Virus record (IMG/VR): IMGVR_UViG_3300035501_000268 | From: a virus | Direction: 5' to 3' (one strand) | DNA length: 12,148 nt | Part shown: positions 787-6,792 of the stretch, piece by piece | Numbering within the stretch: position 1 is the stretch's first letter | Layout: each line of letters opens with the position of its first letter | Notes under the pieces: model-generated | What the model was told of the DNA's origin: nothing | What the model saw: only the letters and a program-made list of their open reading frames with translations | Database searches by the model: none | Program-made: the position numbers and the translations under genes

Positions 787-860
787 TGGGGAGTCGTTCA
801 ATGGTAGGACAGGAGGCTCTAACCCTCTCAATTAGAGTTCGAATCTCTACTCCCCCGCCA
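787..860 (+). tRNA. amber-suppressor tRNA, anticodon CUA (reads UAG), tRNA-Gln-like identity (U1, G73, G2:C71, G3:C70, G10); CCA encoded
   Basis: Hand-folded cloverleaf. Acceptor TGGGGAG (787-793) pairs with CTCCCCC (850-856) as 6 bp plus a U1·C72 mismatch. U8 is present. D-stem GTTC (796-799) pairs with GGAC (807-810), with D-loop AATGGTA (800-806). Anticodon stem GGAGG (812-816) pairs with CCTCT (824-828); the loop is CTCTAAC with U33 and A37, giving anticodon C819-T820-A821 = CUA. Variable loop is 4 nt. T-stem TAGAG (833-837) pairs with CTCTA (845-849) around the canonical T-loop TTCGAAT. Discriminator is G857, followed by CCA 858-860. Confidence 0.8.
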
Positions 861-885
861 ATTATTTTTTAAAGGAGTTTTTAAT

Positions 886-999
886 ATGAATTTGCGCAAG
901 GAAATGATTGAACATCGCATTAAGATTCTTGAAGCTCGAGATGCAGTAGCAAACGCAAATATTATTAGAAAGCTAAAGCGACAACTTAATAAACTTTAA
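886..999 (+). CDS. small basic protein, 37 aa (MNLRKEMIEHRIKILEARDAVANANIIRKLKRQLNKL), unknown function, lying between two tRNA genes
   Basis: Strong RBS AAAGGAG 10 nt upstream of the ATG; ends at TAA 997-999. Not in the supplied track because it is below the length cutoff. Confidence 0.45.
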   Translation: MNLRKEMIEHRIKILEARDAVANANIIRKLKRQLNKL

Positions 1000-1037
1000 T
1001 TTGCTAGAGTGGCAGAATCGGGATATGCAGCGGACTT

Positions 1038-1921
1038 TTTGGAATACACAAGGACAATTAAACGACGACTATGCCAATACAAAAGGATGTGAAAACTAAA
1101 TGCCTATAATTGCTAAATGGCGCTTACTGCCAGAAGAAGAATTTGCACGCTTGGAAAAAGAAAGTAGGTCTTTTTAGGAATTAGCATAGAAAATTGGTTA
1201 TGTTAAAACCGGGGGAGGAACTCAAACTTCCTTAAAACAGGCTGTCCAAGAAAGAAACCTTGATACAAGTCATTTTTTAGGAAATTCTTGGAACAAAGAA
1301 AATTATGATTATTCTTCTTTTGAAAAAAATTCCATAAAAAAGAATGGAAAAACAACTCTAAATCCTCTCGTGAAATTGCGTGGAAGAAAATGTGAAAATT
1401 GTGGAATTACAGAATGGCTTGGTCAACCAATTAATTTAGAAATACATCATATTAATGGAGACAGAAGCGATAATTCACTTAATAATCTTATGATTTTATG
1501 TCCTAATTGTCATTCCTATACATCAAACTTCCGTCGTCGAAAAGATAAATATATAACAGTTAAAGATGAAGATTTTGTTTTTGCTCTTCAACAGTGTCAA
1601 AATATTGCATAGGCTTTAAGACTTTTAGGATTATCGCCAACTGGTGGTAATTATACAAGAGCAAGAGAATTAATTGAAAAGCATCATTTAACACATTTGT
1701 ATTCCTAATAGAGCCATAAGATAGGAAACTTCTTATGGGATGTGCGCTAATTCGGCGAAACTCTCTTAGAGACAACGCCGAGCTAAATTTTTAGAATAAT
1801 CTAAAATAAATGTGTAGAGACTATATACGCACCTCCTAAATTTTGTAAAAAATATGGAGAAGACATAGTCCAGACTACAACAGCTTTTGTCCGGCTGGCT
1901 ATGGCGACATAGAGTAGTACG
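1038..1921 (+). mobile_element. group I intron (~884 nt) in tRNA-Leu(UAA), carrying an HNH homing-endonuclease ORF in a 5' peripheral loop; catalytic core lies 3' of the ORF
   Basis: 5' splice site follows a U (U34). Last intron nucleotide is G1921 (omega-G). Conserved core elements: P AATTCGGCGAAA (1749-1760), Q AACGCCGAGC (1774-1783) with TCGGCG/CGCCGA forming P4, R ...GAGACTATA... (1815-1829), S AAGACATAGTCC (1860-1871) with GACTA/TAGTC forming P7. P1/IGS was not resolved by eye. Confidence 0.75.
1100..1708 (+). CDS. intron-encoded HNH homing endonuclease, 202 aa; three in-frame TAG codons (1175-1177, 1187-1189, 1610-1612) that must be read through
   Basis: RBS AAAGGA; ATG 1100 is preceded by an in-frame TAA. 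The three segments MPIIAKWRLLPEEEFARLEKESRSF, ELA, and KIGYVKTGGGTQTSLKQAVQERNLDTSHF...CENCG...HHINGDRSDNSLNNLMILCPNCHS...QNIA (HNH motif) are separated by in-frame TAGs; after the third TAG the frame continues ALRLLGLSPTGGNYTRARELIEKHHLTHLYS to TAA 1706-1708. The sequence after each TAG retains classic HNH-HE helix-turn-helix repeats (LGxxxxGGxxxxxxxxIxxxxLDTSHF), showing TAG is decoded as sense. The track's ORF 1370-1612 is only the central piece. Confidence 0.85.
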
Positions 1922-2055
1922 AAAATCCGCCGCCGAAAGGATTAGGGGTTCGAATCCCCTCTCTAGCACCAAACCATAACTTTTATCGTAAAAAATGGAG
2001 GAATGACCGAAATGAACAAATTCGCCGTTTTCTAACATAAGGAGGTTAGAAAACC

Positions 2056-2355
2056 ATGAGCAGGAGTTATAAACATACTCCTTATTGGGGCGACAAAAAA
2101 TCAAAGGATATGAAAAGATTTGCAAATCATAGAGTGCGGCAACTGCTTAAAAATCCTGAGAACTCTTTATCCTACAATTCATACAAAAAATGTTTTTGCT
2201 CTTGGAACATATGTGAATATTATACCATATATCCCAAAGGCTTTTACTCCTATTACTTTAATGAACTTGACTCTTGGCATAGTGGGGGACGAATGGTATA
2301 TCCAGAAATAAAACAAGCTAAAAAAGAGTTTAAGCTCCATTATTTACGGAAATAA
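2056..2355 (+). CDS. small basic Cys/His/Tyr-rich protein, 99 aa, unknown function
   Basis: Strong RBS AAGGAGG 8 nt upstream of the ATG; intact ORF ending at TAA. Confidence 0.55.
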   Translation: MSRSYKHTPYWGDKKSKDMKRFANHRVRQLLKNPENSLSYNSYKKCFCSWNICEYYTIYPKGFYSYYFNELDSWHSGGRMVYPEIKQAKKEFKLHYLRK

Positions 2356-2371
2356 ATCCCTTTCTTTTATC

Positions 2372-5036: not shown

Positions 5037-5059
5037 TTTATTATATAAAATGTTATAAT
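5031..5059 (+). promoter_or_regulatory. sigma70-like promoter: -35 TTGATT, 17-nt spacer, extended -10 TGtTATAAT, plus conserved leader ATATATAGAAAATAAAAAGGAG
   Basis: Reading the hexamers directly gives the same layout as the cassettes at 10639 and 11977. Confidence 0.65.
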
Positions 5060-5090
5060 ATATATAGAAAATAAAAAGGAGTAAATAGTT

Positions 5091-5318
5091 ATGAAACAGA
5101 AATATCTTATTACCGGAGAAGAACTGCGGAGTCTGCTTTATATGGCTAATAAATGTATGGCTCTTGAAAGTGGCGGTGTTGATAATTGGGAGTGGTATAG
5201 CGGTTCTATTCAGGATTATCTTAATGACATGACTGATGAATATGAGGTAGATAAGTTTTCAGATTTGGACGATATTGCTGATTTTGAATTAAAACAGTAT
5301 GAAAGAGATAAAGTATGA
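5091..5318 (+). CDS. small acidic protein, 75 aa, unknown function; translationally coupled (ATGA) to the downstream nucleotidyltransferase
   Basis: RBS AAAAGGAG; ATG 5091; its TGA stop overlaps the ATG of the next gene. Confidence 0.6.
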   Translation: MKQKYLITGEELRSLLYMANKCMALESGGVDNWEWYSGSIQDYLNDMTDEYEVDKFSDLDDIADFELKQYERDKV

Positions 5319-5872
5319 TTCAAGAACATTATGATGAAGCTCTATATTATTTCCCAGAAGAAAGAATCGTAGGCATTTTTTGTCAAGGAAGCCAAAATTA
5401 TAAATTAGATACGCCTGATTCGGATTTAGATACGAAGTTAATAGTCACTCCTTCTTTTGAAGGAATTGTTTTTAATAGAAAGCCAATTAGTACCACTTAT
5501 GTGCGCGAGAATGATGAACATATTGATTTTAAAGATATTCGATTAATGATAAATCTTTTCCGCAAACAGAATTTAAATTGTCTTGAAATTTTATTTACTG
5601 ATTTTAAAATTGTAAATCCTCGTTATCAGCGAGAATGGAATAGACTTGTTAAAGCGAATAAGCAAATTGCGCATTGCAATCCTTATCTTGCAGTCAAGGC
5701 TATGGAAGGTATCGCTATGGAGAAATGTCATGCGCCAGAGTGTCCTTATCCTGTGAAACTCGCAGTGTTAGAGAATTTTGATTACGACGGAAAACAGTTA
5801 CATCATCTTTTACGCATTGAAGATTTTCTTGAAAGATATATCGCTGGGATGCTTATGTCCAGAAAAGGCTGA
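5315..5872 (+). CDS. minimal nucleotidyltransferase-fold protein (GS-x9-SDxD motif), COG3541-like; N-terminal 185 aa ending at TGA, with the apparent C-terminus in the +1 frame
   Basis: Motif CQGSQNYKLDTPDSDLDTKLIV (GS...DxD) and KQLHHLLR, as recalled for the predicted-nucleotidyltransferase family. The ORF ends at TGA 5870-5872 while a +1-frame ORF continues to 6077. Confidence 0.55.
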   Translation: MIQEHYDEALYYFPEERIVGIFCQGSQNYKLDTPDSDLDTKLIVTPSFEGIVFNRKPISTTYVRENDEHIDFKDIRLMINLFRKQNLNCLEILFTDFKIVNPRYQREWNRLVKANKQIAHCNPYLAVKAMEGIAMEKCHAPECPYPVKLAVLENFDYDGKQLHHLLRIEDFLERYIAGMLMSRKG

Positions 5873-6077
5873 ATATTTCAAAGCTGTAAAGACTTTTATG
5901 TATTCTCAGGAAGAAGCTGAGAGACTTGCCGAAAAAATTATGAAACATATTAAACAAATAAGTAATACTATCACTAAAAACAGCTCTTGGAACATTCGCG
6001 ATAATGAAGTAGATATTCTATTGGATGATGTACAATCTAATACTATGAAAATTGCTATTAAGTATAAAATAATGTAA
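5778..6077 (+). pseudogene. +1-frame continuation of the nucleotidyltransferase gene (...CPEKAEYFKAVKTFMYSQEEAERLAEKIMKHIKQ...IKYKIM), implying a frameshift within ~5840-5872 (programmed, a genuine mutation, or a sequencing error)
   Basis: There is no RBS or plausible start for an independent gene. The frames overlap by 95 nt, and the protein-like sequence begins exactly where frame A ends. Confidence 0.4.
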
Positions 6078-6150
6078 ATACTTGGGCAAAGCATCTTCAT
6101 CATTCTTCCTTATTCTTTATATATAAATAGAAAATAAAGGAGGTATTTTT

Positions 6151-6792
6151 ATGGGATATATTTATAAAATTACAAATCTAGCAAATGGGAAAAGTTATAT
6201 AGGAAAGACCGAAAGAAGCATTAAAGTTCGATGGAGAGAACATCTCCGTTTAAGCCGATTAAATTATTAGCTTCCTCTTTATAGAGCTTTTTTAAAATAT
6301 GGTACTGATAGTTTTTCAGTTGAATAGATTGAAGAATGTGACTCAGCTATTTTAGACGAACGAGAAATATATTGGATTGCTTATTATGACTCATATAGAA
6401 AAGGATATAATTGTACTGAGGGCGGCGAAGGCGGCATAAAAACTTATCAAGAAGATATTGATATTATAATCTAGCGATACTCACAAGGAGAACGATTAGA
6501 TAAACTATGTAAAGAATATCATCATGATTATAATAGCTTAAAAAATCGTTTAATAGAACATGGCGTAATTATAGATTCTCAAGCAGGTCCTAAAAAATTA
6601 AGTAAAAAAGTTTATGCTTTAGACCCTGTTTCTAAACAATGCGTTGCTAGTTATGATTCAATTTCTGAGGCTAGTAGAGCTTTATGTTAGCCGGAAAAAA
6701 ATCCTCGCGCTATCGCAAATCATATTAGCAAACAAAAAAATACTAATAACATTTATCATGGTTTTATTTGGACAACAAATCTTGACTCTTAA
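6151..6792 (+). CDS. free-standing GIY-YIG homing endonuclease with a C-terminal NUMOD-like DNA-binding helix, 213 aa; four in-frame TAG codons (6268-6270, 6325-6327, 6472-6474, 6688-6690)
   Basis: Perfect SD AAGGAGG; ATG 6151. N-terminus MGYIYKITNLANGKSYIGKTERSIKVRWREH is the canonical GIY-x10-YIG motif. Reading through the TAGs gives ...SRLNY*LPLYRAFLKYGTDSFSVE*IEECDSAILDEREIYWIAYYDSYRKGYNCTEGG... and a C-terminus ...KKVYALDPVSKQCVASYDSISEASRAL*...HGFIWTT, the latter a NUMOD1-like motif. Ends at TAA 6790-6792. In the supplied track it appears only as fragments. Confidence 0.88.

Follow-up and report, generated by a model that had tools for sequence, protein, structure and literature searches.

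A large gut or rumen phage lineage, represented by the IMG/VR virus record IMGVR_UViG_3300035501_000268, probably reads the amber codon TAG as glutamine (Gln; code 15), with TAG purged from its early-type genes and its mobile endonuclease genes left unconstrained. We analyzed 12,148 nucleotides (nt) of this record (hereafter the window; all positions are those of the whole stretch) and found a compact case of partial reassignment, in which a suppressor tRNA with anticodon CUA, tRNA(CUA), a TAG-purged block and two TAG-using mobile nuclease genes lie within 12 kb. The two nuclease genes are an HNH gene, carried in an intron of a tRNA-Leu(UAA) gene, and a free-standing GIY-YIG gene (Table 1). 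Using a protein of the window that resembles the major vault protein (MVP-like) as a marker, we retrieved 13 IMG/VR and 24 metagenome loci of related phages, many of them on 135–200 kb contigs; individual loci and contigs are numbered below with the prefix L.

When TAA and TGA were taken as the only stops, two sizeable new open reading frames (ORFs) with known domains were opened, namely the HNH and GIY-YIG genes, which contain seven in-frame TAGs but are free of TAA, TGA and frameshifts over their 415 codons. These two genes use TAG 7 times and CAA or CAG 12 times, compared with 0 and 110 times in the 19 other genes (Fisher p = 5e-7). Of the 20 stop codons in the window, 16 are TAA, 4 are TGA and none is TAG; relative to the ~15% TAG stops of standard-code relatives this lack is weak evidence with so few genes (p ~0.04). 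Coding density in the window rose from 0.78 to 0.86 when TAG was treated as sense, a gain contributed wholly by the two endonuclease genes. An initial annotation, made from the sequence of the window, had described seven TAGs in two genes whose protein motifs continue past them and had reported no TAG, internal or terminal, in any other gene; ORF listing, Pfam matches and codon counts agreed with it on both points.

Several lines of evidence indicate that these reading frames are translated through their TAGs. An independent JGI contig, L017 (metagenome 3300035502), matches the window over 5528–10299 with 99.96% identity and has the same four TAGs in its GIY-YIG gene, so the TAGs are not assembly errors. 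The ratio of nonsynonymous to synonymous substitution rates (dN/dS) was 0.12–0.19 for the HNH gene; past the first TAG it was 0.14 and 0.20 for HNH (against L044 and L042, respectively) and 0.07 for GIY-YIG (window against L014), which means that the sequence downstream of the first TAG is under protein-level selection. It is true that homing-endonuclease genes often decay and that both genes are fragmented under translation table 11, as would be expected of decaying pseudogenes in a standard-code genome that has an unrelated tRNA(CUA). We consider this extremely improbable, given that all seven interruptions are TAG (p ~1e-5 under pseudogene decay, calculated from trinucleotide abundances), that selection acts beyond them, that the full frame is kept in orthologues with differing TAG positions and that a cognate suppressor tRNA is encoded 240 nt upstream.

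This tRNA(CUA) gene was identified by ARAGORN and fits the Rfam tRNA model over model positions 1–71, with a score well above the gathering score of 29. Its acceptor end has U1 opposite C72, G2-C71, G3-C70 and G73; the tRNA-Gln(UUG/CUG) genes of related phages share these acceptor elements, but have U1-A72. Among 38 phage tRNAs, its best matches were three tRNA-Gln, with 70%, 62% and 61% identity. The promoter located 34 nt ahead of it is the top promoter site in the window. The anticodon, the Gln-like identity elements and the strong promoter of its own, all of which had been proposed beforehand, were therefore borne out. A promoter cassette also immediately precedes tRNA(CUA) in L004, L007 and L042, the syntenic position of the tRNA is kept in the window, L004, L026 and L042, and L007 and L044 have tRNA(CUA) genes too.

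Which amino acid is inserted at TAG was judged from close orthologues at the DNA level. The Gln found in database homologues (372 for HNH, mostly full length, and 647 for GIY-YIG, hundreds of them full length) was not taken at face value, because the database had itself translated TAG as Q, as in the GIY-YIG protein P0001, where Q stands at a position that is TAG in the DNA of L014. In orthologue columns with TAG, the commonest alternative codon was CAA/CAG (8 of 32). The GIY-YIG orthologue of L014, which is 92% identical, has TAG at codons 40, 108 and 180 and CAG at codon 59, and the HNH orthologues of L042 and L044 have nine and six TAGs, respectively, at partly different positions. HNH column 171 is mostly Gln in database homologues, part of these Gln being translated TAGs, and other TAG columns are variable, with Glu, Asp or Lys. 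The initial annotation had asked whether Gln sits at the TAG positions; the orthologue codons and column 171 agree with Gln. Overall, the TAG/CAA or CAG exchanges among orthologues, the dN/dS values and the Gln-like tRNA indicate that TAG is most likely translated as a sense codon, best read as Gln, and tRNA(CUA) would accordingly be charged with Gln.

A reading of TAG as pyrrolysine, Glu, Tyr or another amino acid could be argued from the ARAGORN output 'tRNA-Pyl', and from the homologues, in which Glu is as frequent as Gln at several TAG columns and Tyr occurs at two. Moreover, in a host without glutaminyl-tRNA synthetase the tRNA would be charged first with Glu, through the indirect Gln-tRNA pathway. 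We nonetheless consider a non-Gln reading quite improbable. ARAGORN prints 'Pyl' for every CUA tRNA and the label here reflects the anticodon alone; a genuine tRNA-Pyl has a very short D-loop without GG, a 6-bp anticodon stem and a 3-nt variable loop, unlike the ordinary cloverleaf of tRNA(CUA), with its GG-containing D-loop (AAUGGUA), 5-bp anticodon stem and T-loop UUCGAAU. The match of its acceptor end to phage tRNA-Gln genes and the predominance of CAA/CAG at TAG columns also argue against it, as does the use of code 15 in crAss-like phages, for which PMC9523058 gives proteomic support.

The first of the two TAG-using genes is intron-borne, as the initial annotation had recognized. A predicted group I intron splits tRNA-Leu(UAA) and carries the HNH gene. 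The Rfam Intron_gpI model (RF00028; gathering score 50) matched 1694–1892 with 58.9 bits (E = 4e-13), and joining of the two flanking exons restored an 85-nt tRNA-Leu(UAA) recognized by ARAGORN. The 5' exon ends with T at position 1037 and the intron with G at position 1921. The region of the 5' splice site yielded no convincing P1 helix with a U-G pair; the sole P1/guide candidate, GGGGAG near 1212–1217, lies 175 nt downstream of that site and within the ORF. On the 179-kb contig L042, tRNA(CUA) is followed by an HNH gene with homologous intron sequence (79% nt identity), a 99-amino-acid (aa) ORF and tRNA-Gly(UCC), although the L042 intron was not recovered by Rfam at the gathering threshold. 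L004 has an intronless tRNA-Leu(UAA) at the same position after tRNA(CUA), so the intron appears to be optional at a fixed site. Pfam models for HNH (23.8 bits, cut-off 21.4) and HNH_3 (26.6 bits, cut-off 24.8) both matched the encoded protein.

In the free-standing gene, the Pfam GIY-YIG domain (1.6e-8, 35.2 bits, cut-off 22.6) covers residues 1–87 and the match spans two TAGs. The gene has a strong Shine-Dalgarno site, and no promoter cassette was found between the promoter at 5031 and its start. An RlaP-like nucleotidyltransferase gene precedes it in the window, L014 and L017, whereas L002, L003 and L004 have no GIY-YIG gene at that place. Invariant catalytic-motif residues are conserved in both the GIY-YIG and the HNH alignments, and both ORFs are predicted homing endonucleases on the basis of their catalytic domains and their patchy presence at fixed sites. 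The JGI annotation of L017 illustrates the practical consequence of ignoring the reassignment, in that a 39-aa GIY-YIG stub ending at the first TAG is called at 624–743 (window 6151–6270). Table 11 misannotates contigs of this lineage, and translation table 15 is needed if the endonuclease genes are not to be called as fragments. Next to the GIY-YIG gene, the -35 element of the promoter cassette at 6782 falls within its last codons, and the adjoining RlaP-like gene upstream is split (5315–5872 and 5880–6077), having lost 14 nt compared with the orthologue of L014, which is intact and encodes 269 aa. The same break is present in the independent contig L017, and it could mark either a pseudogene or a site of frameshifting.

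We then asked how far TAG use extends in the related loci. No relative above 68% identity in the MVP-like protein was found in the scans of IMG/VR and the metagenomes. In the relatives at 60–68% identity, coding density increased from 0.69–0.85 to 0.87–0.95 with TAG as sense (gains of 0.07–0.20, for example from 0.75 to 0.95 and from 0.69 to 0.89), compared with changes of only -0.01 to +0.04 in distant relatives (52–58% identity). The TAG-rich genes of the recoded relatives form blocks on the opposite strand and encode a tail protein (phrog_5302, 2e-60), tail-fibre proteins, an 873-aa Ig-like protein, a glycosyltransferase/UDP-glucose dehydrogenase fusion, a reverse transcriptase and an intein-bearing radical-SAM protein. 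On the + strand, in the block that starts from the MVP-like gene, nearly every gene rich in TAG is endonuclease-like (GIY-YIG, HNH and Zn-ribbon/DUF2726), and each of the 15 endonuclease-like genes identified across 13 recoded loci contains 3–14 TAGs. In L014, which has the closest GIY-YIG orthologue, only the two endonuclease-like genes have any; L007 encodes a PhoH-like protein with four TAGs on its + strand. The promoter cassette is likewise restricted to the + strand, with one exception in ten loci. The initial annotation had TAG confined to homing-endonuclease genes; this describes the 12-kb block correctly, but not the relatives, which use TAG widely, in tail, tail-fibre, glycosyltransferase, PhoH-like and other genes. 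Proteins with a Zn-ribbon repeat (GxxxGxLxV...WxCxCxCG) and a C-terminal DUF2726-type nuclease are encoded by the TAG-richest genes, with up to 14 TAGs in 338 codons, and these genes are scattered in the manner of mobile endonuclease genes.

It had also been proposed that the endonuclease genes were imported. The rest of the genome would then use the standard code, and these genes, perhaps with tRNA(CUA), would have homed in recently from TAG-recoded relatives. Both genes are of mobile types and patchy, as seen from the intronless tRNA of L004 and from L002, L003 and L004, which have no GIY-YIG gene after the RlaP-like gene; TAG is found nowhere else in the 12 kb; and a standard-code phage with an acquired suppressor tRNA is known (Borges et al., bioRxiv 10.1101/2021.08.26.457843). 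However, the absence of TAG stops, the occurrence of tRNA(CUA) in syntenic position in several relatives and elsewhere in others, and the broad recoding of all relatives at 60–68% identity count against import, which we regard as improbable and which is not needed, as the lineage itself appears to be recoded.

The frequency of TAG, expressed as its share of all TAG, CAA and CAG codons, provided further insight into why the endonuclease genes differ from their neighbours. This share was 0.46 in the endonuclease-like genes when pooled (0.37 in the window), 0.27 in opposite-strand genes and at most 0.06 in + strand neighbours, the last value being overestimated because many small TAG-containing 'ORFs' of L042 overlap tRNA genes. 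Base composition alone predicts 0.39. The endonuclease genes are thus near neutrality, and it is the avoidance of TAG in early-type genes that bears the mark of selection; the 0 of 110 in the other window genes departs from the neutral share with p ~1e-24. The codons of the endonuclease genes are in general AT-rich and drift-like (CAA >> CAG), unlike those of the highly biased MVP-like gene.

A mechanism that would account for these patterns is as follows. A host-type RNA polymerase would transcribe the Gln-like tRNA(CUA) from the consensus sigma-70 promoter that heads the tRNA unit, and host ribosomes, as yet unmodified, could translate the TAG-purged genes behind promoters of the same type while the suppressor is still scarce. 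Mobile endonuclease genes that have entered the early-type block would be under no such constraint and would carry TAG at the level set by composition. Full-length HNH and GIY-YIG proteins would then be made only after the suppressor has been charged and outcompetes release factor 1; the 3–4 TAGs per gene would compound the loss of endonuclease yield, and the truncated products would be inactive since the first TAG of each gene (codon 26 in HNH, codon 40 in GIY-YIG) is located ahead of the catalytic residues. The type of its promoters and its genes, which include those for a gp5.9-like RecBCD inhibitor and RNA-repair-like enzymes, suggest that the block is early, and a delay or attenuation of endonuclease synthesis would be expected.

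Whether such a delay has been selected for is a separate matter. The initial annotation offered, as one of two options, a leash on selfish nucleases, with expression only when the suppressor tRNA is made. In its selected form, amber codons would be kept in the nuclease genes so that the proteins appear late or in small amounts, sparing replicating phage DNA or host functions early in infection. The idea is plausible and has a precedent, having been proposed by Borges et al. for TGA-recoded Agate phages, in which a group I intron endonuclease is preferentially recoded. It gains from the presence of TAGs in every one of the 15 endonuclease-like genes, at a share exceeding that of opposite-strand genes (p = 9e-7), from the first TAG, which comes ahead of the catalytic motifs in the HNH and GIY-YIG genes of the window, from the location of the endonuclease genes in early-type units without promoters of their own, and from the three of four GIY-YIG TAG positions that are common to the window and L014. 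In phage T4, translation of intron endonucleases is likewise delayed to late infection. Yet the pooled share is barely over the neutral value (p = 0.05) and that of the window is not over it, the avoidance lying instead in the neighbours; TAG positions turn over among orthologues, L044 sharing none of the three HNH positions of the window; and the codons of the endonuclease genes are drift-like in general. Relaxed constraint accounts for the data without selection for TAG, and we view selected control as possible but doubtful. Its extension to a selected timer or dose limiter acting on three unrelated nuclease families (HNH, GIY-YIG and Zn-ribbon/DUF2726), transcribed early and translatable as the suppressor accumulates, appears rather unlikely; if true, the code change would also police mobile elements. 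In a further variant, mobile endonuclease genes may adopt the new codon first and help to spread recoding between phages.

Some observations weigh against a lineage-wide reassignment to Gln with a purged early block. The window covers 12 kb of genome and includes none of this phage's late or structural genes, and genome-wide recoding is extrapolated from relatives that are 60–68% identical in one protein. Late-gene TAG use is not strict, the NlpC/P60 (lysin-like) gene of L014 having no TAG, and at several TAG columns the homologues have Glu or Gln. The timing of the block is deduced from promoter type and gene content, and the delay could be short, as tRNA(CUA) has the strongest early-type promoter and shares a unit with the HNH gene.

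Table 1. Features of the window and, where a locus number is given, of related loci
Feature	Position	Strand	Details
Sigma-70-type promoter, extended -10	725..753	+	TTGACA-17-TATAAT, 12/12 consensus, upstream TG
Amber suppressor tRNA, anticodon CUA, Gln-like, CCA encoded	787..860	+	ARAGORN; Rfam 50.7 bits
tRNA-Leu(UAA) exon 1, ends at U34	1003..1037	+	Exon reconstitution, ARAGORN
Predicted group I intron, 884 nt, between U34 and A35 of tRNA-Leu(UAA)	1038..1921	+	RF00028; exon reconstitution
Predicted HNH homing-endonuclease gene, 202 aa	1100..1708	+	TAG codons 26, 30, 171 (1175, 1187, 1610)
tRNA-Leu(UAA) exon 2 with CCA	1922..1971	+	Exon reconstitution
Predicted free-standing GIY-YIG homing-endonuclease gene, 213 aa	6151..6792	+	TAG codons 40, 59, 108, 180 (6268, 6325, 6472, 6688)
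Terminator-like hairpin closing upstream unit	683..715	+	14-pair stem then T run
tRNA-Gly(UCC), last gene of tRNA(CUA) unit	2396..2472	+	ARAGORN
Promoter of gp5.9-like/RlaP-like/GIY-YIG unit	5031..5059	+	TTGATT-17-TATAAT with TG
Promoter cassettes	725, 2531, 5031, 6782, 7660, 10639, 11977	+	Near-identical; 4 directly behind terminator-like hairpins
Zn-ribbon/DUF2726 family	L001 9283-9996, 12438-13166, 16805-17707; L006 15591-16607; L013 13567-14469, others
Structured RNAs of relatives	L044 2502-3089; L042 6439-7075, 3129-3242, 1224-1271
Reverse transcriptase and radical-SAM genes in TAG-rich blocks of relatives	L002 1271-2485; L006 2284-4629

The window is built of terminator-promoter cassettes, and its seven promoter cassettes (TTGA-N18-20-TATAATAYA) all lie on the + strand. 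The first unit consists of tRNA(CUA), a 37-aa ORF, the split tRNA-Leu with the HNH gene, a 99-aa ORF and tRNA-Gly; run on the window as a whole, ARAGORN reported two tRNAs, tRNA(CUA) and tRNA-Gly(UCC). The unit starting from 5031 encodes the T7 gp5.9-like RecBCD inhibitor, the RlaP-like nucleotidyltransferase and the GIY-YIG protein. Its first gene, at 5091–5318, encodes a 75-aa protein that matches the T7 gp5.9 RecBCD-inhibitor family (Pfam PF25708, 1.5e-8). Between these two units lies the MVP-like gene (2601–4991, 796 aa; Pfam MVP_shoulder 1.5e-17, Vault_3 1e-7), which is kept in all 37 related loci and has a higher G+C content and a strong CAG bias; just upstream of it, L014 and L042 encode a DUF2828 + DUF7788 protein that also matches VWA weakly. 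Further downstream, at 7962–11988, are genes for an RNase T-type exonuclease, an RNA ligase with a PHA02142 OB domain, a metallophosphoesterase and a NADAR domain protein, and these RNA-repair-like genes, together with the tRNA genes, suggest a tRNA-repair or counter-defence module. A scan of IMG/VR with the RNA ligase gave no confirmed match; a look-up of this protein retrieved only the 4.8-kb JGI contig L017, and an exact-protein look-up of the MVP-like protein retrieved nothing.

The host is probably Bacillota-like. The window has AAGGAGG ribosome-binding sites, sigma-70/sigma-A-type promoters with TG and a G+C content of ~35%, and ROOL RNA occurs in relatives; the earlier remark that strong Shine-Dalgarno usage points away from Bacteroidota was supported by these sites and by the TG-extended -10 promoters. 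The tRNA arrays of relatives contain ROOL RNA (324 and 308 bits), drum RNA and DUF3800-XI RNA, and L042 has 31 tRNA genes in 14 kb. Within the TAG-rich blocks, a reverse transcriptase gene adjoins tail-fibre-like genes and may be part of a diversity-generating retroelement, and a radical-SAM protein has an apparent intein. A 439-aa TAG-sense 'ORF' of L001 (19908–21227) was dropped as non-coding because of its low-complexity translation.

Several of these elements have counterparts in known systems. The U34/A35 insertion point is the classical site of the cyanobacterial and plastid group I intron of tRNA-Leu(UAA), with which the window intron shares the host gene, the U that precedes it and the G at its end. 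The likeness is one of position; the classical intron has no ORF, whereas that of the window carries an HNH gene and lies within a phage tRNA array. A limited full-text search found no paper describing an HNH-bearing intron in a phage tRNA-Leu(UAA).

The crAss-like and Lak phages show the same TAG-to-Gln reassignment, with a suppressor tRNA(CUA) and recoded late genes, and for crAss-like phages PMC9523058 reports proteomic proof that TAG is read as Gln. They infect Bacteroidota, whereas the promoters and Shine-Dalgarno sites of the window and the ROOL RNA of its relatives point elsewhere, and there is no sequence relationship. In megablast against an annotated phage collection the whole window had no match, and tblastn of the MVP-like protein against annotated phages retrieved only three distant matches, all unannotated huge-phage records with 38–40% identity. 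On the same grounds we rejected phAss-1 (proposed Phassvirus) as a close relative. This ~136 kb gut phage has TAG in 28% of its ORFs, two to three tRNA-Sup(CTA) genes, typed as Gln by tRNAscan-SE, and no dedicated aminoacyl-tRNA synthetase (PMC10607447); it resembles the window in combining TAG recoding with suppressor tRNAs, but PMC10607447 does not single out endonucleases.

A close parallel is provided by the large gemstone clades (Jade, Sapphire and Agate) described by Borges et al. (bioRxiv 10.1101/2021.08.26.457843), ~150–210 kb phages of the animal gut in which early genes, among them those for the code-change machinery, remain compatible with the standard code while structural and lysis modules are recoded. 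Partial stop reassignment, a phage-encoded suppressor tRNA and a contrast between early and recoded genes are common to these phages and the lineage of the window, and the host signals of the window, being unlike those of Bacteroidota, fit with the recoded clades that Borges et al. predicted to infect Firmicutes. The families recoded most strongly in Agate phages include a group I intron endonuclease that is inserted in an early gene, and Borges et al. suggested that in-frame stops block endonuclease production until late (bioRxiv 10.1101/2021.08.26.457843). Both the pattern and the idea of a leash are therefore already known from this sister case, and the window leaves the current understanding of recoding unchanged. 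Its additions are modest, comprising a TAG version, three nuclease families, an HNH intron at U34/A35 of tRNA-Leu(UAA) and the neutral-frequency argument. The Agate case concerns TGA read as Trp, whereas in the window TAG is most likely read as Gln, and the one group I intron endonuclease published for Agate phages compares here with an HNH gene in a tRNA-Leu intron, a free-standing GIY-YIG gene and the Zn-ribbon/DUF2726 genes.

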